DNA of 64,000 bases from an uncultured Acidobacteriota bacterium. Lineage in GTDB: Bacteria > Acidobacteriota > Thermoanaerobaculia > Gp7-AA8. The stretch is from assembly GCA_963822445.1 (NCBI GenBank), contig CAWGHO010000001.1, positions 1,184,001 to 1,248,000 of the forward strand, given 5' to 3'. This document shows, one piece after another, positions 39,519 to 51,631 of the stretch (the first letter of the stretch is position 1; every line of letters begins with the position of its first letter). The position numbers and the translations under genes were made by a program. A model generated the notes under the pieces. That model saw nothing but the letters and a program-made list of their open reading frames with translations. It was not told the DNA's origin and did no database searches.

Positions 39519-40439
39519 ATGCTCGATCAACATCGCTGGCTTCTCTCCGATCGCGTCCGGACGCTCGCTTTCCGGGACGCGATCCACCAGCTGGTCAAGC
39601 CCGGCGACGTCGTAGTCGACCTGGGCAGCGGCTCGGGAATCCTCGCCTTCTTCGCGGCTGAGGCTGGTGCGGCGCGGGTTTACGCGATCGAGAAGCAGCA
39701 CATCGCCGACGTGGCTTCGCTGGTCGCGCGGCACAACCGTTATCACGACCGGGTCGTCCTCCTGCACGAGTACTCCCTGAAAACGACAGTGCCCGAGCGG
39801 GCGAATGTCCTCATCACCGAGACCCTCGGCAACTTCGGTCTCGACGAGCAGATCGCCGGACTGACCATCGACGCGCGCGAGCGCTACCTGATGCCGGACG
39901 CGATCCTCATTCCCCAGCGCGTCGTGCTGTCCGCGGTTCCGGTCGAGCTTCTGGAGATGTTCGAGCGGCACATCGAGTGGTGGGGTGAATCGCGTTACGG
40001 CGTCGATCTCAAACCGCTGCGCACCTTCGCGTCGAACACGGTTTACGCCGCCGACGTCTCCGAGCGGGCGCATCTCGCCGCGCCGGCGACGATGGTCGAC
40101 ATCGATCTCCGAACGATAGAGACGTCCGATGCCGCTGGAAAGGCTGTCTTCATCGCGACCCGCGACGGCGTGCTGCACGGATTTGCAGGCTGGTTTGCCG
40201 CCACGATCGCGCCGGGCATCGTCATCTCCAATCCCGCTCCGCACGACACGCACTGGCAGCAGGCTTTCCTGCCGGTCGAACATCCCGTCGAAATCAAACG
40301 CGGCGACCAGATCGAGCTCGAGTTGCAGACGCACGACGGGCGGGCCTGGCGGTGGCGCGGGCGCGCCGCGGAGCAGGAGTTCGATCAGACCACCTGGCTC
40401 TCCGCGCCTCCGTGCACCCTTCTCGGCGCGCGGGACTAG
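39519..40439 (+). CDS. PRMT-like (protein arginine methyltransferase fold) SAM-dependent methyltransferase
   Basis: VVDLGSGSGIL motif I, VYAIE, double-E loop ITETLGNFGLDE, LHGFAGWF and THW loop (DTHWQQ). Confidence 0.8.
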   Translation: MLDQHRWLLSDRVRTLAFRDAIHQLVKPGDVVVDLGSGSGILAFFAAEAGAARVYAIEKQHIADVASLVARHNRYHDRVVLLHEYSLKTTVPERANVLITETLGNFGLDEQIAGLTIDARERYLMPDAILIPQRVVLSAVPVELLEMFERHIEWWGESRYGVDLKPLRTFASNTVYAADVSERAHLAAPATMVDIDLRTIETSDAAGKAVFIATRDGVLHGFAGWFAATIAPGIVISNPAPHDTHWQQAFLPVEHPVEIKRGDQIELELQTHDGRAWRWRGRAAEQEFDQTTWLSAPPCTLLGARD

Positions 40440-40449
40440 AATTCGCGGC

Positions 40450-41577
40450 ATGTACAGGGCCGCACTGCTTTTCGTCCTTCTCCTTCCCACGTTTGCATTC
40501 GCCCAGGGCCGCCGCGATGGCGACTGGCGTGAGTTTCCCGCGCAGAAAGGGTGCGTCGGCGGCAGCCGCTGCGCCGACAAGCGCTTCCGCATCGCGCTCG
40601 ATGACAGGCCGGTCATCGCCGTGCGATTCAGAGCGCATGATCAAATCGGCGAGACGGCCGGCGGCGTGTTGCGGGTGAAGATCGACGGCGACACGATCCG
40701 CGGCTACCTCGATATCCCCCGCGCCGGCGAGCTGTTCACGATCGACGTGGACGAGCTTCGCGGACGGCAGCTCGTGTTCGAGCCGGTCGCGAATGATGAA
40801 GTCGAGATCTCCGACATCGCGGTCATGTACAGCCGCGAGAATACGATCCGCCGCATCCCCGAGGCTCGTCGGGGCGGGCGGGGCGGCGGCGGACCGGGAT
40901 GGCGCTCGTATCCGAATGCCTCCGGTTGCATCGGCGGCGACGGCTGCCGCCAGAACGGCACCCGCATCACCATCCCTCTCGAAGAAGCCCCGGTCCTCGG
41001 CATCCGCTTTCACGCCCACGACAACGTCGGCAAACGCGCCGACGGCAAGCTGAGCGTGCGCATCGACGACACGACCATCGGCTGGTCGATCGACGTGCAG
41101 CGCAACGGCAAGCGCCATGACGTCGAGGTGGACAACGTCCGCGGCACGCGACTGGTGATCGAGACGGCGAACGACGACGAAGTCGAAGTCAGCGACGTCG
41201 AAGTGCTTTACGGCCGCCGCGGCGGAGTGGGCAGCAATGGCCCGCGCGAGATCGAGCACGAAGGCGGATGCATCGGCGGATCGGAATGCGGCGGCCGCCG
41301 CAATCGCATTCGCGTGGCCCTGCGCGATTACCCCGTCGAATCGATCCGCTTCTACGCCCGCGACGACGTCGGCACCAGGGCCGGCGGCGAGCTCCGCATC
41401 CGCATCGACGAGGAGATCCTCCGCGATTACCTCGACATCCCCCGCGAAGGCCGCACCTTCACCATCGACGGCAAAGGCCTGGTCGGCGAGTACCTGATCA
41501 TCGAGACGACCGAGGATGACGAAGTGGTGATCCGGGACATCAAGGTGAAGTTCGGGACGGGGGAGTACGACGATTAG
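40450..41577 (+). CDS. Secreted hypothetical protein with three tandem ~110-aa domains
   Basis: Signal peptide MYRAALLFVLLLPTFAFA; three copies of GC(V/I)GG..C...RF.A.D..G..A.G.L...ID...D(I/V).R.G...DEV. Confidence 0.8.
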   Translation: MYRAALLFVLLLPTFAFAQGRRDGDWREFPAQKGCVGGSRCADKRFRIALDDRPVIAVRFRAHDQIGETAGGVLRVKIDGDTIRGYLDIPRAGELFTIDVDELRGRQLVFEPVANDEVEISDIAVMYSRENTIRRIPEARRGGRGGGGPGWRSYPNASGCIGGDGCRQNGTRITIPLEEAPVLGIRFHAHDNVGKRADGKLSVRIDDTTIGWSIDVQRNGKRHDVEVDNVRGTRLVIETANDDEVEVSDVEVLYGRRGGVGSNGPREIEHEGGCIGGSECGGRRNRIRVALRDYPVESIRFYARDDVGTRAGGELRIRIDEEILRDYLDIPREGRTFTIDGKGLVGEYLIIETTEDDEVVIRDIKVKFGTGEYDD

Positions 41578-41888
41578 GGGCGCGGAGTTGATTGCGCGTA
41601 TCGCTACGGGCAATCCGGGTACGCGCCTGGATAAATCGCTTTTCCATTCTGGGGCGTGATCGCGTTCTGCAGGTAGGCGACTGAAGCGACAATTCCTTAG
41701 CCAGTTCAGATTGGCTTGAACACGCGCAATGATTGCAACCCCGCTCGCAAGAACCGCCTATACGTGCGACCAAAGGCGGTATGGCAGAGTGCCCATCCTG
41801 CTGCACCCGACCTTCGTAAGGCGCCGGTTTGGGCTGAGTCCCAAGGTGCACGCGTCGTACTTCAGAACAAACCGCACTTCTATACGCA

Positions 41889-41907
41889 GCCTAAATTCGA
41901 GTTATGC
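41889..41907 (+). other. attI-like recombination site
   Basis: GCCTAAA-TTCGA-GTTATGC resembles the attI1 simple site (CCCTAAA-ACAAA-GTTRRRY). GTTATGCCG is the exact complement of CGGCATAAC at 46515. Confidence 0.55.
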
Positions 41908-41948
41908 CGACGAACCGGAGAGTTAGCCAGACGTAAGATAAGCGACGC

Positions 41949-42569
41949 ATGAAATTGATTGCGATACTTGAATCATGGGTCATTCCCGACGGAAGTTACC
42001 CTCCATTCGCTGTCGGAATGCCGGTAAACCTGTCTTTCGAGATGGCAGTGCGACAGATCTCTATCAACGCCGCAGCTGAGGATTCGTTCGAATCGAATGG
42101 AGAGGGCGAGTACTCGTTTGCGGGCCGGGTTCTCGCAAAGTACAACGGTGGCGATCCGCTCGCGGTGGTCGAAGCAAGCGGGTTCCGCTTCTTCCTCGAA
42201 GGCACGCGCGCGCAGGAACTTCGCCCCGGTGAACGCGTTCAGGGACTAGGTTCTTTGGTGGTCGACTACTACATATGGGTCGAATACGTCAACGAACGTC
42301 GTGAGGCGCCGGACCTTTTCTACAACTTGGGCGTTCGCCGTATTCGGCGCGTCCAGATTCCGGATTCTCTCGTCAGCCGTCACGCCACAGGCAAGGCGCT
42401 TCCTGCCCGAGTCGCGCCATCGGAGTTCGGCGCAATCACCGAGTTGCAGACAATGGTCGGACAGGAATTTGACGAAGAGTTCTATCTCCTCGACCTAGAA
42501 ACGACCGATCTAGCAGTGCCGCGGACTTTCTCGGGTGAGCCCCGCGAGTTCCGCCTTGAACGCAGGTGA
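41949..42569 (+). CDS. Hypothetical protein (cassette gene)
   Basis: 206-aa ORF starting 27 nt after GTTAGCC (41922); no recognised motif. Confidence 0.75.
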   Translation: MKLIAILESWVIPDGSYPPFAVGMPVNLSFEMAVRQISINAAAEDSFESNGEGEYSFAGRVLAKYNGGDPLAVVEASGFRFFLEGTRAQELRPGERVQGLGSLVVDYYIWVEYVNERREAPDLFYNLGVRRIRRVQIPDSLVSRHATGKALPARVAPSEFGAITELQTMVGQEFDEEFYLLDLETTDLAVPRTFSGEPREFRLERR

Positions 42570-42624
42570 TCACGGATGAGCGTACTTGTGCGAAAATGCG
42601 TAATGCCAGCTGAGGTTCACACTG

Positions 42625-43002
42625 TTGGATTCCGCCGAGATTGAACGAGCTGTTTGGGTTGCGACAGGCGTCGCGGCAATCACCGCGGCTCTGCTCACAG
42701 TCGTTGTGTATTACCTTCAACAACTTACCGTCGCCACCACCGGCATGCGCGTGCTTGGCAGCGTTGCCGCTTTGCTTCTGTCGTTCGGCGTCTACATCTT
42801 TGCGGCAGTCGTATTTTCTATCGTCATAAACGCACAGTTGCGGCAGACGAGTTCCGAGGGAGCGTTGAGCGTGCCTTGGTCAACTGTCTTCATTCACCCA
42901 GGGCCCTTGCACAAACTGGCACCCCTCTTCGCAATAGCTGCAACTTGGGCAACTCTTGCTTTCGTCGCTAGGCGACACCGTTCGCGAGAAATCGCTGGCT
43001 AA
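42625..43002 (+). CDS. Hypothetical membrane protein (cassette gene)
   Basis: Three hydrophobic segments; stop TAA lies inside the attC R'' box GGCTAAC. Start uncertain (TTG). Confidence 0.6.
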   Translation: MDSAEIERAVWVATGVAAITAALLTVVVYYLQQLTVATTGMRVLGSVAALLLSFGVYIFAAVVFSIVINAQLRQTSSEGALSVPWSTVFIHPGPLHKLAPLFAIAATWATLAFVARRHRSREIAG

Positions 43003-43934
43003 CTGTTGCGTCTCAGGACGTTGTTCCGATCCAGGCGACTGATGGGTGGATTGTAAGAGAGCGCGGTATGCGCTCGGTGGTAGTTGTAGAAGTGAAGGTA
43101 CGGTGCGAGCCAACGGCGCCGTTCCTCGGAGCTGTGGTACGAGAACCGATAGGCCCATTCGCGCAGCAGCGTCTGGATGAACCGCTCCGCTTTACCGTTC
43201 GTCCGTGGTGTGTACGGCCGGATGCGGACGTGAGTGAGGTTCAGGCGGCTGCAGGTATCCCGGAAGTCGCGTGAGATGAAGGCCGATCCGTTGTCGGTCA
43301 TCACCCGCTCGACGATGACATTCCGCTGAGCGAACCACGCCACCGCCCGAGTCAAAAACGAGCTGGCAGTCTCGCTACGCTCATCTGCCAGGACGTCGAC
43401 GTAGGAGAGTCGGGTGAAGTCATCCGTCGCGACGTACACGAACTCGAAGCCCTGCTTCTTTGAGCCAAACGATCGACGCCTGGTGATGCGGTGTCCCACT
43501 CGATTGAACCGTCCCAGGCGCTTGATGTCGATGTGCACCAGTTCCCCCGGACGCTCCTTCTCGTACCGAATTGGCACTGTTGCCGGCTCAAGCTGACGCA
43601 ACCGAGCCAGCCCTGCTGACCGGCAGATCCGCGCTGCTGTCGACGCACTCACGCCCACTGCCTGCGCGATCTGTCGCACAGTCCGCCATTCGCGGCGAAG
43701 ACTCAGAACACGCTGTCGTTTTATGTCGCTCGTGGCCCGGCCCCTGTGCGGTCTGGAGCTCCGATCGTTAAGCGGCTCGACCCTCAGACCACGACGGATC
43801 CACTCCCGCCCTCGCCGGTCACTCATACCGGCGGCCTCCGACGCCTCGCGCACCGACCATCCTTGTTCGCAGACTCGCTTGACCAGCAGTGCTCGACTCA
43901 ACGGGCAGCTTCGCGCATTCTTGTGCACGTCCAT
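42999..43934 (-). CDS. IS481-family transposase
   Basis: MDVHKNAR, YEKERPGELVHIDIK, VMTDNGSAF and RPYTPRTNGKAERFIQTLLREWAY (DDE integrase core). Confidence 0.95.
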   Translation of the reverse strand: MDVHKNARSCPLSRALLVKRVCEQGWSVREASEAAGMSDRRGREWIRRGLRVEPLNDRSSRPHRGRATSDIKRQRVLSLRREWRTVRQIAQAVGVSASTAARICRSAGLARLRQLEPATVPIRYEKERPGELVHIDIKRLGRFNRVGHRITRRRSFGSKKQGFEFVYVATDDFTRLSYVDVLADERSETASSFLTRAVAWFAQRNVIVERVMTDNGSAFISRDFRDTCSRLNLTHVRIRPYTPRTNGKAERFIQTLLREWAYRFSYHSSEERRRWLAPYLHFYNYHRAHTALSYNPPISRLDRNNVLRRNS

Positions 43935-44037
43935 CTGGGTTCCTTCCTGTCAACCTGTTCGTTTGAGAGCTTTCAGATTGACGAAAGTCGCCCGGATGGA
44001 CAACCCGCTTCAAGGAACAACGTCCTGACACATCACA
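43004..44037 (-). mobile_element. IS481-family insertion sequence (1034 bp)
   Basis: TGT...ACA ends; 24-bp IRs with 20/24 identity; 6-bp target duplication GCTAAC (42998-43003, 44038-44043). Confidence 0.93.
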
Positions 44038-44094
44038 GCTAACTACTGCCAGGAGCTGTCGGCGGGCCGTTCGCCGCGCCCGGCGGCCGAGCCG

Positions 44095-45424
44095 CATTCG
44101 CATTAAGTTAAGAGCCGGCGTACCCTAAGTGTATGAATCGACGGGTGGATGAGCGGGAGTGGATTCAGTATCAATGGGACTATCTGGTGGCGCTGCTGGG
44201 TGGCAAGCGGCGCATTGAGCGGCTGGCGTATGAGACCGGTGCATTTACGCGACGGCGGAAGGTCGATAGTCCAAGTGATCTGCTGCGTCTGATCTTCACG
44301 TGGGCGGTTGCCGAACGGTCGTTGCAAGAGACTGCGGCCTTGGCTGCCGAGTCGGAACTGGCGGATCTGAGCGCGCCCGCTCTGCTGGGCCGATTCTCAC
44401 AGGCCGAGGCGTGGCTCGGGGCAGTTCTGGGTGATCTGCTCGCTGCGCGGAGCGCGGTCACCTACCGGGTACCGACGTCCGGTTAATCGATGCCACCTCA
44501 ATCAGTTGCCGTGGCAGCAACAACACCGAGCGCCGGGTCCATCTCGCGCTGGATCTACGTACGAACCGCACCACAGCGGTCGACCTCTCTGACCGGCACG
44601 GAGGCGAGACGCTGGAGCGCTTTGTCTTTCGTCCAGGGGAGATCGTGATTGCCGATCGCGGATATGCGAAGCGTAAGGACGTTGCGCACGTGTCGCGAAG
44701 CGGTGCATGGTTTGTGATCCGGATCGGCTGGACCAACCTGCCGCTCGAGCATCTGGACGGGGAACCTTTCGACCTGATTGGAACGCTTGGCGGCCTCCCT
44801 GAGGCGGCGGCTGCAGAGTTTTCCGTTCAGATTCGTACGGCGAAGGATGCGTTGGTGCCGTGCCCTGGTGGCTGTACGGAAGAGCGAACCAGCCGCCGAG
44901 CGCGCACGGCAGCAGATCCTCGCCGACGCCCGACGGCACGGCAATCCGCAGGTCGACCTGCGCACACTCGAAGCCGCGGGGTGCATATTCGTCATCACCA
45001 ATTTGCCCAACGAGATCTCGCCGAGAGCGTGCTGGAGCTCTATCGCCTACGGTGGCAGATCGAGATCAAGTTCAAGACCCTCAAGTCCGTACTTCACCTC
45101 GGAAACCCGCCGACCCGAAGCGGCGAGCTGCTGAACGTTTATCTCATGGCGAAGCTGATCGTTGCGCTGCTGATCGAGGAGTTCATCTATCAGGCCGAGT
45201 CTATTTCCCCCTGGGGATACCCGCTCGAGGCCAATACAACCGTGGCGGCTGACGCGACTCCTGCTTGAAGCTGTGATCGCCGCAATCCGGCCAGTGCTGT
45301 CGCTGCGACTCCGCTGGAGTCGGCCCCTTCGCTGTTCCCGTCATCTTGCCCAAGCGAATAGAAGTCGACCAAACCAGCGCACGTCGGCACGCTACGTTAC
45401 TGGAGACATAAGTTAATGCGAATG
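44095..45424 (+). mobile_element. IS4-family insertion sequence, IS186/IS421-like (1330 bp)
   Basis: IRs CATTCGCATTAAGTTA / TAAGTTAATGCGAATG (15/16 match); 11-bp target duplication CGGCCGAGCCG (44084-44094, 45425-45435). Confidence 0.9.
44133..45268 (+). pseudogene. IS186-like IS4 transposase, frameshifted (pseudogene or sequencing indels)
   Basis: Fragments GAFTRRRKV...DLLRL, IADRGY, TLEAAG.IFVITNLP and YRLRWQIE..FKTLKS.L.L in different frames; switches near 44470, 44865 and 45020. Confidence 0.82.
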
Positions 45425-45977
45425 CGGCCGAGCCGCCTACCACGTCCCGCGATGCACGGCGTCACGCCGCTTGCAACCGCGTCAACGTCAAATGCGGCAA
45501 GCGGCGTGCCGCGACTGCTCGCTCGCACGTGGGGCCTCGCCGCAGCTCAGGCGATAGACGTTCGTCGAGAAGCACCCTTTCCATGAACGCTTCGTATCTC
45601 GCACGTTGAACGCGTGCGTGGCGCGGCGCCGCGCCCAGGCGACGCGGACGCACGACTTCCAACCGCGCACAATTCGCTCGATGAAATAGACGGAGGTTTG
45701 CGAATCGGTTCGGGCAACATGGCAAAGCGCCAAGCGCCCCATCGGTGGCATCTTCAATCTAGCGCATCTCACGCGATCACCCTACTGTCCGCATGCCATT
45801 CAAACCGCGCAATAGACGGCGACCTCTATCGTTGCGGTGGTCGCTAAGCCAGTGCGTCTATTGGTTATTCGGTCGACGAACACAAAAAGCTTAAGGTGGC
45901 TTTATGGGAGCCCGACCGCGCCTGACTCACGCCGCAGGCCGAGTGTCGGACGATCACATGCTATTCTTGATCTGCCG

Positions 45978-46511
45978 ATGCAGAGCTCGAGAGGCATAGT
46001 TGTACGTGCAGCGACTTGGGTGGTCGCGGCCTTCCTTGCTTCGGGGTTCCAATTTTCAACCTCCGCGCAGGAATCGCAGCGTCTCACGGCAAGCGATGCA
46101 TTCGCCATGTACTCATCGATGCTTGCCGAGATTTCACACGCGTCGCTCGACGACTTTAAAACTGTCATCGGCTTGCTTGAACGAGACGGCTTCCGAAAGG
46201 CGTCCGACAACTCCTGGCGTTTCCGAAACGAAAGCGGCAGCGTCGTCGTCGCCGCGTACCCAGAGCAGGGATCGTACTTTGTCTCGCTTGCGCCCAAGAA
46301 TACAGGTCCGTTCGGCGATGCTGCTCTGGCCGCCCTGATAGCCAAGGCGGAGGCAGTCATGCTCGACAGCGGCGGACAATCCATCGAGATATTGCTTCGC
46401 CGATCGAACCAGCAACGTCTTGGGAAGACCGTCGAGGTCAGCGAGTACATCTACGTCGCCCTGAATGGTGCCATCTGGTGGCGAACGTCACGCGCAATCG
46501 TATGGCGCTAA
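45978..46511 (+). CDS. Hypothetical secreted protein (cassette gene)
   Basis: Signal-peptide-like MQSSRGIVVRAATWVVAAFLASGFQFSTSAQE; stop 5 nt before R'' GCATAAC. Start uncertain. Confidence 0.65.
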   Translation: MQSSRGIVVRAATWVVAAFLASGFQFSTSAQESQRLTASDAFAMYSSMLAEISHASLDDFKTVIGLLERDGFRKASDNSWRFRNESGSVVVAAYPEQGSYFVSLAPKNTGPFGDAALAALIAKAEAVMLDSGGQSIEILLRRSNQQRLGKTVEVSEYIYVALNGAIWWRTSRAIVWR

Positions 46512-46516
46512 ACGCG

Positions 46517-46714
46517 GCATAACTACTGCCAGGAGCTGTCGCGGCCCGGCTTCGGTCCGCCGGCCGAGCCGGCTGCTTTTTCGCCAGAGGGACGGCGTCA
46601 CGGCGGTTGCAGGTCGCCACTCGCTGCATCGCAGTTCATTGGCGGCAACCGCCGCGCCGCTCCGGCTTCGGCGCGCGGGCCCTGGCCGCGCAGCTCAGGC
46701 GATAGACGTTAGCC
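46517..46714 (+). other. attC-like site 2 (intact, 198 bp)
   Basis: GCATAAC-TACT-GCCAGGAGCTG-T-CGCGGCC ... GGCCGCG-CAGCTCAGGC-GATAGAC-GTTAGCC, with a long internal stem (CGGCGGTTGC/GCAACCGCCG). Confidence 0.85.
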
Positions 46715-46813
46715 TGACACCGAGAGAGAGCGCCAGAACTCATACTTTCGAGCGCCGCATCCCGATGACGTACTCGTGACGTAAGTCTCGGCACTCGTGT
46801 AAGATCGTTCGCA

Positions 46814-47038
46814 ATGCCACAAGCCTTCGACACCTCGCCGCGCGCAGCAGCCGTACACGCCCAGCTCTATCGTGACATCGGCCCAGCGAAGCGAGCTGAA
46901 ATCATGGCGGAGCTCAGCGACGCGCTACGAGATCTCGCTGCGGCCGGCGTCCGGCGACGACATCCTGAGTACGATGACGAGCGTGTTCGAAAAGAAGTCC
47001 TCGCGGTCTTCTATGGCCGCGGTCGAACGTCGCTGTGA
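46814..47038 (+). CDS. Small putative antitoxin, MenA1 (Rv0078B)-like
   Basis: 74 aa, DTSP...R......L.....R.L...G.R.RHPE; overlaps the downstream NTase gene (GTGA). Confidence 0.65.
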   Translation: MPQAFDTSPRAAAVHAQLYRDIGPAKRAEIMAELSDALRDLAAAGVRRRHPEYDDERVRKEVLAVFYGRGRTSL

Positions 47039-47592
47039 GCCTCCGAGACGCTTTTCGAAACATGCGAGATGCTCTTGAGGAGCTTGGAATACCGTACATG
47101 GTGACGGGTTCCGTCGCGAGCTCCGTGCACGGTGTTCCGCGAGCTACTCAAGACATCGATGTGATCATCGAGCCGACACGTGACCAGCTAGTTGCGCTCT
47201 TAAACAGGTTTTCCGAACCAATCTACGACGCCGATCGCGACGACGCTTTGGATGCTCTCAATCGACGATCAATGTTCAGCGTGATCGATCGCAGAGGCAT
47301 ATGGAAGATCGACTTCATCGTTCGCAAGCAGCGTCCGTTCAGTAAGAAAGAATTTGACCGACGGGTGAGAATCGATATTCTCGATGTTTTAGTGTATTCG
47401 GCGACACCGGAAGATGTACTCCTTGCAAAGCTCGAGTGGGCGAAATTGGGTGAATCCGAACGCCAGATCCGTGATGCTGCAGGCATCATCGAAATTCAGG
47501 GCGAGAAGCTTGACCGTGAGTATGTGGAGCGGTGGGCCGCAGCCCTGGATATTGAGGATCAATTGCACGCAGCACGAGCAAAGGCAGGCTAA
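47035..47592 (+). CDS. Nucleotidyltransferase-fold protein, MenT1-like putative toxin
   Basis: GSVASSVHGVPRATQDID (GS...DxD), KIDF, EDVLLAKL.W...SERQ.RD; stop inside R'' GGCTAAC. Confidence 0.75.
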   Translation: MSLRDAFRNMRDALEELGIPYMVTGSVASSVHGVPRATQDIDVIIEPTRDQLVALLNRFSEPIYDADRDDALDALNRRSMFSVIDRRGIWKIDFIVRKQRPFSKKEFDRRVRIDILDVLVYSATPEDVLLAKLEWAKLGESERQIRDAAGIIEIQGEKLDREYVERWAAALDIEDQLHAARAKAG

Positions 47593-47767
47593 CTACTGCC
47601 CGAGGCTGTCGGAGAGCCGTCTGCCGCGCCCGGCGCTGAAGCGCCTCGTGAAGCGTTGCTTGCCCGCGGAAGGCCGGCCATCCCTACGCGCCACGGCGCC
47701 GAGGAGCGCGCCACGCAAACCCTACCCACGCGGAACCTCGCCGCATCTCACGCGTTAGACGCTGGAT
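47587..47767 (+). other. attC-like site 3 (terminal, degenerate, 181 bp)
   Basis: GGCTAACTACTGCCCGAGGCTGTCGG ... CGCCGCATCTCACGCGTTAGACGCTGG aligns with the other copies, with GCT in place of the R' GTT. Confidence 0.7.
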
Positions 47768-47819
47768 TGCCCTCGATTCCGATAGCATCGAGCCCCGTAG
47801 CCGTCAGGGAGGGAGAAAG

Positions 47820-48986
47820 ATGACGTACCGCGTTCTTATATTCACCTTGCTCGCGCTCTGCGTGAGCGCAACCGCCGCGTCGCAGCCGGTCGTCGTCGGG
47901 CAAAGCCACCGCCTTCGTTCATCGGTCCTGAACGAAGACCGCACTTACCGCGTTCATCTTCCGGCGAGCTATGGATGGGCGAAGGATCGGCGATATCCGG
48001 TTCTGTACGTGCTCGATGGCGCGACGCATTTTCTGCACACGTCCGGGTCCGCCGGCTATCTCGCGGCGCAGGGCGAGATCCCGGAAATGATCGTGGTTGC
48101 GCTCGACAGCACCGTCCGGATCAGAGACTTCACCCAGTCGGACTGGTCGAGCGCATGGGTTGGAGGAGGGGGCGCGGCGAACTTCAAGCGCTTCCTTTCC
48201 ACCGAGCTCATTCCGAACATCGAGCGCGCTTATCGCACCAACGGGTTCCGCGTGCTGGCCGGCCACTCCGCCGGTGGACAGTTCGTCCTGTACTGCCTCA
48301 CCTCCGAGCCGTCTCTCTTTCAGGCCTACATGGCGTTCAGCCCGAGTCTCGACTGGGACGACAACCTGCCCCAGAAATCGCTGGCCAAATCGTTCGACTC
48401 GACGCGCTCGCTGAAGGCGTTTCTGTACGTCGCGCGATCGGATGATTCCGGCCGCGCATTGGAGGATTACGACCGGCTGGTGGAAACCCTGAAAACGAAA
48501 TCGCCGCAGGGATTCCGCTGGCACAGCCAGCCCTATCCTGACGAAACCCACGGCAGCATTCCTTTGCTCGCACAGATCGATGCCCTTCGCCGACTGTACT
48601 CCGGTTACCGGTTTCACGGAGACCTGGTGTCGAAGGGCCTCGACTTCGCGGAGAAGCATTTCGAAGAGGTCTCCAGGACCGTGGGATGGCCTCTGCCCGT
48701 TCCCGAAAGCGTGATCAACGATTTCGGTTACGACGCGCTGGCGGCGGGGAAAACGGAAGCTGCCATTACTCTCTTCACGCGCAACGTTCTGGCGAATCCG
48801 AATTCCGCCAACGCCTACGACAGTCTGGCGGACGCGTATGAAAAGGCGGAGAACTGGAAAGAAGCGGCAAAAGCAGCAGAGAAAGCCGCCGCTCTGGCTA
48901 TAGAGTTCGACCTTGCCAACCGGGAGTACTTCATTCAGCACGCCGCAAAAATGAAGGCCCGGCTCGAACAGGAATCGAAACCATGA
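47820..48986 (+). CDS. Alpha/beta-hydrolase esterase (IroE/BesA-like) with C-terminal TPR
   Basis: YPVLYVLDG, GHSAGG nucleophile elbow, ETHGS and NPNSANAYDSLADAY TPR; GGAGG RBS. Confidence 0.88.
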   Translation: MTYRVLIFTLLALCVSATAASQPVVVGQSHRLRSSVLNEDRTYRVHLPASYGWAKDRRYPVLYVLDGATHFLHTSGSAGYLAAQGEIPEMIVVALDSTVRIRDFTQSDWSSAWVGGGGAANFKRFLSTELIPNIERAYRTNGFRVLAGHSAGGQFVLYCLTSEPSLFQAYMAFSPSLDWDDNLPQKSLAKSFDSTRSLKAFLYVARSDDSGRALEDYDRLVETLKTKSPQGFRWHSQPYPDETHGSIPLLAQIDALRRLYSGYRFHGDLVSKGLDFAEKHFEEVSRTVGWPLPVPESVINDFGYDALAAGKTEAAITLFTRNVLANPNSANAYDSLADAYEKAENWKEAAKAAEKAAALAIEFDLANREYFIQHAAKMKARLEQESKP

Positions 48987-49357
48987 TCAACGGCTTTCAC
49001 GGCGTTCGCTATCAGGTGAAGGATGTCGCCCGATCGATCGACTTCTACACCGAACATCTCGGCTTCAAACTGGAGCACAAGCAGCTTCCCGCGTTTGCCG
49101 CTCTTTCCCTCGGCGCGCTCCCGCTCCTGCTGAGCGGGCCCGGCGCTTCGGGCTCGCGTCTCGTCAATGGCGAGCCTCAGGAGCCGGGCGGCTGGAATCG
49201 CATCGTTCTTCGCGTTGCCGATCTTTCGTCATTCATCGAGGCCCTAAGCAAGGCCGGTCTCCGGTTTCGAGGCGAAATGCAGGTTGGCCCGGGAGGAAAG
49301 CAGATTCAATTGCTCGACCCCGACGGCAATCCGATCGAGCTATTCGAGCCGGCCTAG
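48983..49357 (+). CDS. VOC/glyoxalase family protein
   Basis: V.DV.RSIDFY..HLGF and DPDGNPIELF. Confidence 0.9.
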   Translation: MINGFHGVRYQVKDVARSIDFYTEHLGFKLEHKQLPAFAALSLGALPLLLSGPGASGSRLVNGEPQEPGGWNRIVLRVADLSSFIEALSKAGLRFRGEMQVGPGGKQIQLLDPDGNPIELFEPA

Positions 49358-51631
49358 GATCTCCTGATACCTGGCCTCCCCTCGCAGCGGCTCGAACGGC
49401 GGCGAGACGCGCATGGCCGACAGCCAGTAATCGCGATTCGCATACGCCTCGTCGAGCAGCGCCGTGGCGCGGGCGCGATCGCCGAGGAGGTACCAGGTGC
49501 CCGCTCGCAAAGCGGGGGTATGGGTGATGCCGGGCGAGGTCGGGCCGAGATCCTCGAGTGTGGCGATGGCCGCGACGCGGTCGCCGGTGCGCGCGTACGC
49601 GTAGGCGAGAAACGACTTCGAGACCGGGAAGTTCCGCGATGCCGAGTAGCGAAGACCCTCGATGGCTTTCGCGTAATCGCCCGAAGCCAGCGCGACGTAG
49701 CCGCGGATGTGCCGCGGATACAGCGCGTTCGGATCGAGCTCGATGGTCTCGTCGATCTGCTTCGTCGCTTCCTCGCGACGCCCGGCGTGCACGAGCGCGA
49801 AGGCGACGTTCGACTGGATCTGCGTCGAGAACGGATCGAGCCGCGCCGCTTCCTGCATCTGTCCGACGCCCTCCTGCGCGCGGCCGACGTTCACGAGGTA
49901 GACGCCATACCAGTGATGGGCGACGGCGTAGTTCGGATTGAGCTCGAGCGCGCGGCGGAACGATCGCTCGGCGGACGGCAGGTCGAGGAGGCAACAGAGA
50001 TTCAGGTATCCGAGGGATGTGTGGGCTTCGGCGAGGCTCTCGTCGAGCTTCAGCGCCTGCCGCGCCGCGGAGACCGCGCGATCGCACGCCTGCCGCCACG
50101 GTGCCGTGCCGAGTTGCATCTGCCCGATGTACGCATCAGCAACGCCGCTGTAGGCGCGGCCATAAGTCGGGTCGGCTTCCAGGGCCTGTTGAAAGAAGCC
50201 GTGCGCCTTCGCCAGCGACTCGGCATCGCGCTTGTTCCAGAAATAGCGGCCCTTGAGATAGAGGTCCGTCGCCGCGCGGCTCTCCGTCGGTGCAGGAGGC
50301 GGCGATGTACGTCCACCGCCTCGCAACGCGCTGGTGACATCGCCGGAGATCTGGCGCTCGATGGCGAGCACGTCGTGCTCGTACTGCCTTCCCCAGAGCC
50401 GCGTGCCGTCGGCGGCGTCCACGAGCTCCGCGTCGACGAGCAGCCGCTTCCCCGAGCGCCGCACCTGCCCGGCCACGATCGCGTCGACGCCGAGCTCCTT
50501 CGCCACCGCCGGAAGCGCTTTGTCCGTGTTCTTGTAGCGAAAGGCCGTCGTTCTCGCGATGACGCGAAGATCGGGCACGCGCGAGAGATCGTTGAGTAAC
50601 GCGTCGGTCACGCCGTCGCTGAGATATTCGAGATTCGCGTCGCCGGTGACGTTCCCGAACGGAATCACCACCAGCGATTTCACGATTCGCGTCGGTGCCC
50701 TGTCCCGAAACAGCAGCGCGACCGCGGTCGCAATCACTGCGGCGGCGATCGCCAACGCCAGAACGCGCGAGCGCTTGCGTTTCGGTTCCGCGGCCGGCTT
50801 CCCCGCCAGCACTTCGCGCAGATCGATCGCGAGATCGCGCGCGGAGTGATAACGATCGTCCGGCTTCTTCGCGAGGCAGCGGCGGACGATGCGGTCGAGA
50901 GCCTCAGGATCGAGTGGCCGAGGCTGTCCGCTGACGATGTTCGAGAGGACGTCGAAGGACGACTCCCCTTCGAACGCCCGCCGCCGCGCGATGGCTTCGT
51001 AGAGGATGCAGCCCGCCGCGAAGATGTCGCTGCGCGCGTCGGCGGTTTTGCCGCGAATCTGTTCGGGCGAGATGTAGCCGGCTGTGCCGACGACGACGCG
51101 CGACTCGGGATCGAGCGGCGTCGTCGCATCGGTCGATCCTGCAATTTGCGGGACCTGCAGCTTCGCCAGACCGAAGTCGAGGATCTTCGCGTAACCGTCC
51201 GCGGTGACCATCACGTTGTCCGGCTTCAGATCGCGATGCACGATCCCCGCGGCGTGCGCCTTGGCCAGCCCCTCGACGACCTGCACGCAATAGCCGAGCA
51301 ATTCGTCGCGCGATACTTCGGGATCGTTGATCAGGTCGCGCAGGCTGCGCCCTTCGATCAGTTCCGAGACCATGTAACTCCGCCCGTCGGCCTCGCCGAA
51401 GCCGTGCACGGTGAGGATGTTCGGATGATTCAGCGCCGACGCCGCCTCGGCCTCCCGCCGGAACCGCGCCACGGCGTCCGCGTCGTTCGCCAGATATGTC
51501 GCGAGCACTTTCACGGCGACGTCGCGGCGCAGCTTCAGGTCGCGGGCGCGATAGACCTCGCCCATTCCTCCCGCGCCGAGGAACGAGACCACTTCGTAGT
51601 CGCCGAGGCGCGTGCCGGGCTCGATGCGCAT
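49340..51631 (-). CDS. Hanks-type Ser/Thr kinase with TolB_N-like and TPR domains
   Basis: LGAGGMGEVY, VAVK, HRDLKPDN, DFGLAK, GTAGYISPE, then YLSDG.T..L...LS TolB-like segment and TPRs. Confidence 0.93.
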   Translation of the reverse strand: MRIEPGTRLGDYEVVSFLGAGGMGEVYRARDLKLRRDVAVKVLATYLANDADAVARFRREAEAASALNHPNILTVHGFGEADGRSYMVSELIEGRSLRDLINDPEVSRDELLGYCVQVVEGLAKAHAAGIVHRDLKPDNVMVTADGYAKILDFGLAKLQVPQIAGSTDATTPLDPESRVVVGTAGYISPEQIRGKTADARSDIFAAGCILYEAIARRRAFEGESSFDVLSNIVSGQPRPLDPEALDRIVRRCLAKKPDDRYHSARDLAIDLREVLAGKPAAEPKRKRSRVLALAIAAAVIATAVALLFRDRAPTRIVKSLVVIPFGNVTGDANLEYLSDGVTDALLNDLSRVPDLRVIARTTAFRYKNTDKALPAVAKELGVDAIVAGQVRRSGKRLLVDAELVDAADGTRLWGRQYEHDVLAIERQISGDVTSALRGGGRTSPPPAPTESRAATDLYLKGRYFWNKRDAESLAKAHGFFQQALEADPTYGRAYSGVADAYIGQMQLGTAPWRQACDRAVSAARQALKLDESLAEAHTSLGYLNLCCLLDLPSAERSFRRALELNPNYAVAHHWYGVYLVNVGRAQEGVGQMQEAARLDPFSTQIQSNVAFALVHAGRREEATKQIDETIELDPNALYPRHIRGYVALASGDYAKAIEGLRYSASRNFPVSKSFLAYAYARTGDRVAAIATLEDLGPTSPGITHTPALRAGTWYLLGDRARATALLDEAYANRDYWLSAMRVSPPFEPLRGEARYQEILGRLE

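Follow-up and report, generated by a model that had tools for sequence, protein, structure and literature searches.

An integrase-less cluster of three integron cassettes with long attC sites in an uncultured Acidobacteriota bacterium

The window analysed here is a stretch of 64,000 nucleotides from an uncultured Acidobacteriota bacterium of the class Thermoanaerobaculia, lineage Gp7-AA8 (NCBI GenBank assembly GCA_963822445.1, contig CAWGHO010000001.1, positions 1,184,001 to 1,248,000 of the forward strand). Its positions 41902-47761 are a CALIN, in which attC sites are clustered without an integron-integrase, and contain three cassettes. The attC sites lie at 42997-45566, 46517-46714 and 47587-47767; two or more sites are thus spaced by 4 kb at most, and the nearest 4 kb contain no integron integrase, as in the definition of a CALIN. 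A profile search finds no integrase-like match at E<=0.001 in the whole 64-kb window. In all likelihood the cluster is derived from the genome's own large sedentary chromosomal integron, the integrase (IntI) of which would have inserted the cassettes at a non-att site. The core of the original prediction, namely cassettes with attC sites and no integrase nearby, is supported.

The cassette boundaries can be read directly from the DNA. The cluster comprises the following parts (ORF, open reading frame):

41902-41922, plus strand: 5' stub of cassette B (TTATGCCGACGAACCGGAGAG), 21 nt; GTTATGCCG at 41901 and the R'' 9-mer of attC-B at 46515 are exact reverse complements
41923-45560, plus strand: cassette A, nested in cassette B; GTTAGCCAG at 41922 is complementary to CTGGCTAAC at 42995
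45561-46708, plus strand: remainder of cassette B; contains attC-B and, at 45837-46511, an ORF of no known family (up to 224 aa)
46709-47761, plus strand: cassette C; GTTAGCCTG at 46708 is complementary to CAGGCTAAC at 47585; attC-C at its end

A circular cassette cut at G|TT keeps the remainder of its own R' box at its 5' end. The 5' ends are accordingly expected to be the reverse complement of the cassette's own R'', and this is found for all three cassettes of the window. The strings on which the original prediction relied are all in place, the cassette ends at 41922/42995, 46708/47585 and 41901/46515 and the inner stems at 45465/45497 and 46601/46645. On the plus strand of the window the six R-box 9-mers are found once each, and three of the four inner-stem 10-mers have one further copy in the window. 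By our estimate, the chance of a given 9-mer in 5 kb of one strand is about 0.02, and three such matches fall exactly at the expected crossover points.

Cassette A is nested. The R'' of attC-B (CGGCATAAC at 46515) mismatches the sequence after attC-A (GTTCGTCGA) and matches GTTATGCCG at 41901, 21 nt upstream of the start of cassette A. Because the R'' of B matches the start at 41901 and not the one at 45560, cassette A appears to have inserted into a pre-existing cassette B at GAG|TTC. The G at 41901 is the chromosomal target base, and the G at 41922 belongs to the internal GTT in which cassette A sits. For the cassette B 9-mer to fall, on the right strand, no further than about 40 nt from the left border, the probability is estimated here at about 1.5e-4. 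The remainder of cassette B begins directly after the terminal G of attC-A, and cassette C directly after that of attC-B.

The left border, TTCGAG|TT, follows a non-attC G, and a search with the hidden Markov model (HMM) of the attC family finds no attC upstream of it. The right border falls exactly after the terminal G of attC-C and reads G|CT, followed by sequence that is not cassette-like. The claim of G|TT ends holds with the exception of the last site. An 'attI-like site' had also been proposed at 41889-41921. Its similarity to the resident attI is limited to a 13-nt cassette-start motif, and what lies there is the 21-nt stub of cassette B.

The genome consists of three contigs (here C1, C2 and C3) with 6.0 Mb and 64% GC, and was searched with the NCBIfam integron-integrase model TIGR02249 (cut-off 265). 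A single integron integrase is above the cut-off, at C2:2118113-2119048, with about 456 bits (456.4-456.8). Its gene, intI, is a 321-aa open frame without stops, and the match spans profile positions 2-313 of 315. The nearest relatives of this IntI are from Thermoanaerobaculia and Acidobacteria metagenome-assembled genomes (71% and 66% identity). The other eight matches to the integrase model are ordinary tyrosine recombinases with at most 87 bits, none of them in the window. The intI gene is located on another contig than the cluster (C1:1225900-1231770), at a separation of at least about 650 kb from contig coordinates.

The family HMM was built from 82 BLAST seeds, and nhmmer hits were counted at E<=1e-3. 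It gives 124 attC-family hits in the genome, 93 of them in an array at C2:2120556-2226600 and 31 elsewhere, including four in the window. The array is about 106 kb long and starts about 1.5 kb after intI. It has 87 full-length attC sites, 86 on the plus strand and one on the minus strand (C2:2205443-2205646). The intI gene is read towards the array on the same strand, and an attI region of about 350 bp (C2:2119049-2119410) with three GTTATG(G/C) motifs lies downstream of its stop. Such an 'inverted' order has been described for some integrons of non-proteobacterial hosts. The proposal that a distant integrase acts in trans on an attC family specific to the lineage is in agreement with this single IntI beside an array of the same family, and with matches to the family in 20 of 24 genomes of the genus.

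The three sites of the window, with lengths taken from the R'' 7-mer to the R' 7-mer, are:

42997-43003 (R'' GGCTAAC), 44044-44095 and about 45437-45566 (R' GTTCGTC at the end), plus strand: attC-A, in three pieces
46517-46714, plus strand: attC-B, 198 bp, intact; R'' GCATAAC, R' GTTAGCC
47587-47767, plus strand: attC-C, 181 bp, decayed; R'' GGCTAAC, R' GCTGGAT (triplet GCT, not GTT)

The three elements are related, as had been noticed. TAAC..ACTGCC occurs at 44040, 46520 and 47590, and [GC]GCG[AT]TAGACG at 45550, 46698 and 47751, both on the plus strand only. An independent repeat search recovers their 5' ends (48 nt, 67-85% identity to the reference copy) and their 3' ends (35 nt, 71-83%). 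Each site resembles a different sub-type of the array. The predicted lengths of 181-198 bp agree with the 189, 198 and 181 bp obtained, except that the first element is not contiguous and is split by two insertion sequences (IS). For attC-A, the 189 bp are counted without the two IS and with each target duplication taken once. After removal of the IS by coordinates, attC-A has 142.3 bits against the family HMM and 94% identity to C2:2197662-2197846. attC-B has 179.8 bits and is 95% identical to the array sites C2:2186735 and C2:2126171. Its bottom strand, folded as DNA, has -67.4 kcal/mol (z -4.2), a value that none of 200 shuffles attains, and this fold pairs both the R and the L boxes. In the family alignment, attC-C lacks about 19 nt of the middle and shows L-box mismatches. 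It scores 47.9 bits, compared with 100-185 for array members, and the best match to it in the genome has 75% identity. In the minimum-energy fold of its bottom strand (-43.1 kcal/mol) the R boxes are unpaired. The internal GTTAGAC of attC-C (47754) was considered as the true crossover and is rejected, as TAGACG at this place is the family consensus and not a target.

The attC identity of the family is borne out by the array. Among 85 array cassettes, 81 have six variable R'' bases that are perfectly complementary to the upstream cassette start, that is, their own 5' end. The controls, on the 86 plus-strand array sites, are far lower: the downstream cassette start matches in 19/85, and random pairs match in 14.7%. 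Of the four misses, three are found at IS copies and one has no such explanation. The structural alignment contains 88 sites, two from the window and 86 from the array. AAC is invariant in all 88, and the GTT positions are present and pairing in 88, 87 and 88 of 88. RNAalifold predicts 30 pairs, 16 of them with compensatory changes. Paired cells amount to 98.3% versus 88.6% in shuffles and double-change cells to 230 versus 57, and none of 500 shuffles reaches either value; slid controls have 25-53% paired cells. The shuffle control is generous for related sequences, and the slid control and the compensatory-pair count are the firmer evidence. As in known attC sites, there is a strand bias: the bottom strand is the more stable one in 71/88 sites, by a mean of 2.6 kcal/mol. 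The minimum-energy fold pairs the conserved triplets of the R boxes in 82/88 sites on the bottom strand and in 68/88 on the top strand. Two outcomes had been named that would count against the original prediction, repeats lacking complementary cassette ends and a bottom strand with unpaired boxes, and neither is what the family shows.

The R box is 7-9 bp long, and a 3-nt GAC bulge adjoins R'. Part of the spacer is paired. It has a C.A mismatch that is conserved in 70/88 sites and an asymmetry of 4 versus 7 nt; the usual asymmetry of attC spacers is roughly 5 versus 5-6. In the L box, two bases of the L'' arm stand opposite one base of the L' arm (columns 17-18 versus 197), unpaired in 81/88 sites. 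The extrahelical bases of known attC sites occupy the position of this extra L''-arm base (PMC5027507). The L boxes had been called mismatched (GCCAGGAG vs CTCAGGC). The mismatch is present, but it is the usual extra-base asymmetry of the L'' arm. The middle of the site, about 140 nt, is branched, and its internal helices covary. The R-spacer-L geometry is thus close to canonical, and the long branched middle is the unusual part.

The 99 sites measured are 174 to 201 bp long and have their modes at 197-199 and 189-190; the shortest value is attC-C measured to its internal GTT, the true length of which is 181 bp. The attC length given in print is 57-141 bp (PMC5371416), a range that is descriptive and not a functional requirement, and terminal structures of 20-100 nt are reported (VTS, variable terminal structure; 10.1101/030866). 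Length is the one feature beyond these cited ranges, and no search aimed at reports of attC sites of about 200 bp was made.

The route of insertion and the order of events are pieced together from the sequence. The IntI of the C2 integron would excise cassettes from the array as circles, and the folded attC bottom strand would be inserted at a chromosomal non-att site with crossover at G|TT, the secondary-site or 'attG' route. Cassettes C and B would reach the chromosomal site first, and cassette A would then enter B at an internal GTT, 21 nt from the start of B. Later, attC-A would be hit by two IS, one of the IS481 family in its R'' box and one IS4/5-like in its stem, and attC-C would decay as well. 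Insertion by the integrase is favoured because of the exact G|TT borders and the nesting. Loot et al. describe that IntI1-3 in E. coli insert cassettes at chromosomal G|WT, and propose this as the origin of SALINs (single attC sites lacking integron-integrase) and small CALINs (10.1101/2022.09.11.507474). The internal insertion site GAG|TTC fits the 5'-GWT-3' attG consensus published there. Secondary-site insertion is also among the possible CALIN origins named by Cury et al., together with integrase loss and IS-mediated splitting (10.1101/030866). Four other orphan clusters of the genome have their first cassette after a non-attC G (tgcg|TT, ttag|TT, ttag|TT and ggag|TT).

Several points weigh against this origin. 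The right junction G|CT fits neither GTT nor GWT, and is ascribed to the decay of attC-C by assumption. The empty site was not recovered, because synteny of the flanks is too weak: orthologues of the downstream-flank protein are at most 42% identical, in 19 of 30 other genomes of the genus. Cassette B DNA is present in none of 34 other genus genomes beyond a 33-nt chance match, and the metagenome contigs contain neither a relative of cassette B in a protein scan nor an exact 22-mer of its stub. Since the assembly has three contigs, 'another contig' may still be the same chromosome. As the right border has GCT and no allele with an empty site was found, integrase insertion is put forward as an inference.

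The rival that survives best, though improbable, is that the cluster is a piece of the large array moved by IS-mediated or homologous rearrangement and not by the integrase. The IS481-family copy in the window is indeed 100% identical to the array copy at C2:2220435, and Cury et al. report neighbouring IS for 38% of CALINs and propose that IS split integrons (10.1101/030866). However, both IS of the cluster are located inside attC-A and not at the cluster ends. The left end is exactly G|TT with a start complementary to the R'' of B itself, and there is no attC remnant upstream. The right end is exactly the terminal G of attC-C, and the sequence after it is not cassette-like, unlike that after array sites. 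The nesting of A in B at a GTT is likewise hard to obtain by general recombination.

It is very unlikely that the cluster is the relic of a second integron with its integrase gene and attI deleted. Integrase loss is one of the proposed CALIN origins (10.1101/030866), and the GC content drops from about 300 bp upstream of the first cassette, where older foreign DNA may be present. In contrast, the window has no integrase-like match at the threshold given above, and its left flank is unlike the resident attI region beyond the shared cassette-start motif. Cury et al. found intI pseudogenes near only 15/279 CALINs (10.1101/030866). The idea that the repeats are a dispersed family of repetitive extragenic palindromes (REP) or miniature inverted-repeat transposable elements (MITE) mimicking attC is scarcely credible: copies and fragments do occur on all three contigs, with 31/124 hits outside the array, but 75% of hits (93/124) form one co-oriented array 1.5 kb after the sole integron integrase, the cassette ends are complementary as described, AAC and GTT are conserved, the helices covary, and Rfam has no credible match in 40000-49500 (two hits at E 0.6 and 0.78).

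Both IS of the cluster are located in attC-A:

43004-44037, minus strand: IS481-family element, inside the R'' box of attC-A; transposase ORF at 42999-43934 (minus strand)
about 44094-45425, plus strand: IS4/IS5-like element, in the stem of attC-A; transposase in at least two frames (44133-44486, 44645-45268)

The element at 43004-44037 is of the IS481 family, as it has a leucine-zipper rve transposase, inverted repeats and a short target duplication. The transposase matches the Pfam families LZ_Tnp_IS481 (62.7 bits), rve (52.4) and rve_3 (52.4). The terminal inverted repeats are 24 nt long (TGT...ACA), and the target duplication GCTAAC is found at 42998-43003 and 44038-44043. The genome has four copies with 99.9-100% identity, the one in the window and those at C2:2203359-2204392, 2211840-2212873 and 2220435-2221468. 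All four are located in attC R boxes, three in R'' and one inverted in R', each with a 5-6-bp duplication (N)CTAAC. The transposase ORF runs beyond the element, and its stop TAG is made by the duplicated CTA of the target. The genome contains CTAAC 1126 times, with about three quarters of these sites outside R boxes, and G[GC]CTAAC 267 times. The element may simply recognise (N)CTAAC, which is mostly in attC R boxes in this GC-rich genome. Among the papers listed in a literature search, none deals with IS481 elements in attC sites or integrons as judged by titles, and PMC9952335 proved unrelated.

The IS4/IS5-like element is flanked by a 9-11-bp direct repeat GGCCGAGCC(GC) at 44085-44095 and 45426-45436. 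It has inverted repeats of 29 nt with 86% complementarity, and the Pfam domain DDE_Tnp_1 matches with 42.6 bits at 44645-45268. This element is a single copy in the genome, and its transposase is frameshifted. The cluster is probably immobile at present, because attC-A is broken by IS, attC-C is decayed, and only attC-B is intact.

The cluster is one of about 17 loci, spread over all three contigs, that comprise the 31 non-array hits. The approximately 16 further orphan loci of the same family are clusters, single sites and fragments:

C1: 99345-100777; 228364
C2: 54388-55979; 312432; 479961-481139; 492839-493885
C3: 159402-160322; 245514; 373387; 749534; 1171851; 1329705-1336353; 1356218-1357418; 1600605; 1754991

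The matches in 20/24 genomes of the genus come from BLAST; without the unpublished genome G002 the number is 19/23. In other genera of the order or class, one of 16 genomes has a marginal match (E 9.6e-4). An IntI above the cut-off is present in 23/41 genomes, and in 21/39 without the unpublished G002 and G030. By these two distributions, integrons are common in the class and the attC family is genus-specific. In an nhmmer search of 80 loci around IntI relatives of other organisms, many of which may not include the array, the attC family is found in none. Earlier publications report integrons in Acidobacteriota and an attC model specific to Acidobacteria (PMC8618304, PMC8352920). One soil-metagenome run holds 5% of the words of the stretch, and six contig pieces cover only parts of it. 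These pieces are parts of the IS481-like element and an attC-B-like site, the flank of which matches the array copy C2:2126147 and not the cluster; no joints are seen among them.

The cluster is similar to CALINs as set out in the cited report (10.1101/030866), which have two or more attC sites no further than 4 kb apart, lack a nearby integrase, and contain few cassettes, with functions not known, IS in the neighbourhood and an IntI elsewhere in the genome. It is different in its attC sites of 181-198 bp instead of 57-141 bp (PMC5371416), in its nested cassette, and in that two of its three sites are disabled. The C2 integron resembles sedentary chromosomal integrons such as that of Vibrio cholerae, where homogeneous lineage-specific attC sites (VCR, Vibrio cholerae repeats, of 120-129 bp) lie beside one intI (PMC5371416). 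The likeness extends to the size, with about 87 full-length sites in 106 kb, the long branched terminal structures and the mostly unknown cargo. Unlike the Vibrio cholerae type (PMC5371416), it has sites of about 190-200 bp, an Acidobacteriota host and an intI read towards the array. The attG insertions (10.1101/2022.09.11.507474) are similar in that cassettes enter outside attI and attC at little more than G|WT, and a non-attC G is present at the left junctions here and at four loci. They were shown in E. coli with IntI1-3, whereas the case here is inferred for a distant phylum, with one target inside another cassette and a right junction of GCT.

The IS1111-attC group comprises attC-targeting IS of the DEDD type. 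The IS481-family element shares with it the location in attC sites (4/4 copies) and differs in belonging to the IS481 family, with an rve/DDE transposase.

Taken jointly, these features could be explained by an IntI that uses attC sites of about 190-200 nt and inserts at a bare GTT even inside cassettes, and by an IS481-family element that homes to R boxes; as a combination this is a tentative and rather doubtful reading. If it were true, this IntI would act in its own host on attC sites with a conserved branched middle that are roughly 40% longer than the range in print, and the cluster would document the attG route in nature outside the Proteobacteria. The IS481-family element would be a third kind of attC-targeting mobile element, beside IS1111-attC elements and group IIC-attC introns, and would use the duplicated target for its stop codon. 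Little work has been done on integrons outside Proteobacteria. The genome is a clean natural example that unites a very large integron, about 17 orphan loci derived from it, long attC sites and a nested cassette at a non-att GTT. The default maximum attC size of IntegronFinder is 200 bp. As the sites here are near this limit, counts of such integrons in soil Acidobacteriota may be too low. There are published accounts of CALINs, of lineage-specific attC families and of secondary-site insertion, so that detail is added and nothing is overturned. What deserves a note is the length of the attC family, the nesting of one cassette in another, and an IS with all its copies in attC R boxes.

The cassette ORFs are co-oriented, and two of their stop codons, those of the second ORF of cassette A and of the 185-aa ORF of cassette C, are inside R'' boxes. 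Cassette A has ORFs at 41949-42569 (206 aa) and 42625-43002 (125 aa), followed by attC-A with its two IS; neither ORF has a match in Pfam, NCBIfam or PADLOC. Cassette C contains overlapping ORFs at 46814-47038 (74 aa) and 47035-47592 (185 aa). The latter is a DUF6036 nucleotidyltransferase by a Pfam match of 24.8 bits (cut-off 23.6). The stop of the 74-aa ORF overlaps the start of the 185-aa ORF, a layout typical of toxin-antitoxin-like pairs, which are common in chromosomal integrons. PADLOC and NCBIfam have no match for the five cassette ORFs, this pair included, and there is no resistance gene among them.

The GC content is 0.54-0.60 in the cassettes (0.55-0.59 in cassette A) and 0.65-0.68 in the flanks. 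It is already 0.55-0.60 in a non-coding stretch of about 320 bp upstream of the first cassette (41578-41900), and is low again at 48200-49400, where an esterase-TPR gene ends and a small ORF follows. At both places the cluster may be bordered by older foreign DNA in which no attC is recognisable. Promoter and terminator counts in 41400-48000 are no higher than in shuffles. A neighbouring kinase groups with Acidobacteriota proteins and is, like the IntI relatives, a lead to the host phylum.

A short cassette in the array, about 480 bp in length, has an attC sub-type to itself (AACTCACAGCAGCTG ... CAGCTGAGTGAGATGAC) and is repeated at least 12 times, several times in tandem. Examples are at C2:2155412, 2162580, 2167058, 2173043, 2177962, 2178443, 2181469, 2181945, 2182426, 2187217, 2215267 and 2223082. 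The cargo of about 290 bp has no convincing ORF. Six partial HMM hits in the array (C2:2150395, 2158098, 2164130, 2169102, 2202022 and 2218310) match only the central model positions, about 69-191, and have neither R nor L boxes. A hairpin module in its own right or remnants of attC within cassettes may account for them. The array cassettes C2:2192785 and C2:2121582 have the same 3' end (...TTCACGTGTCTCATTTCGGCCGCCGGCTAAC), and the latter is the sole array cassette with a mismatch between R'' and start that is not explained by IS. This suggests a duplication or rearrangement inside the array.

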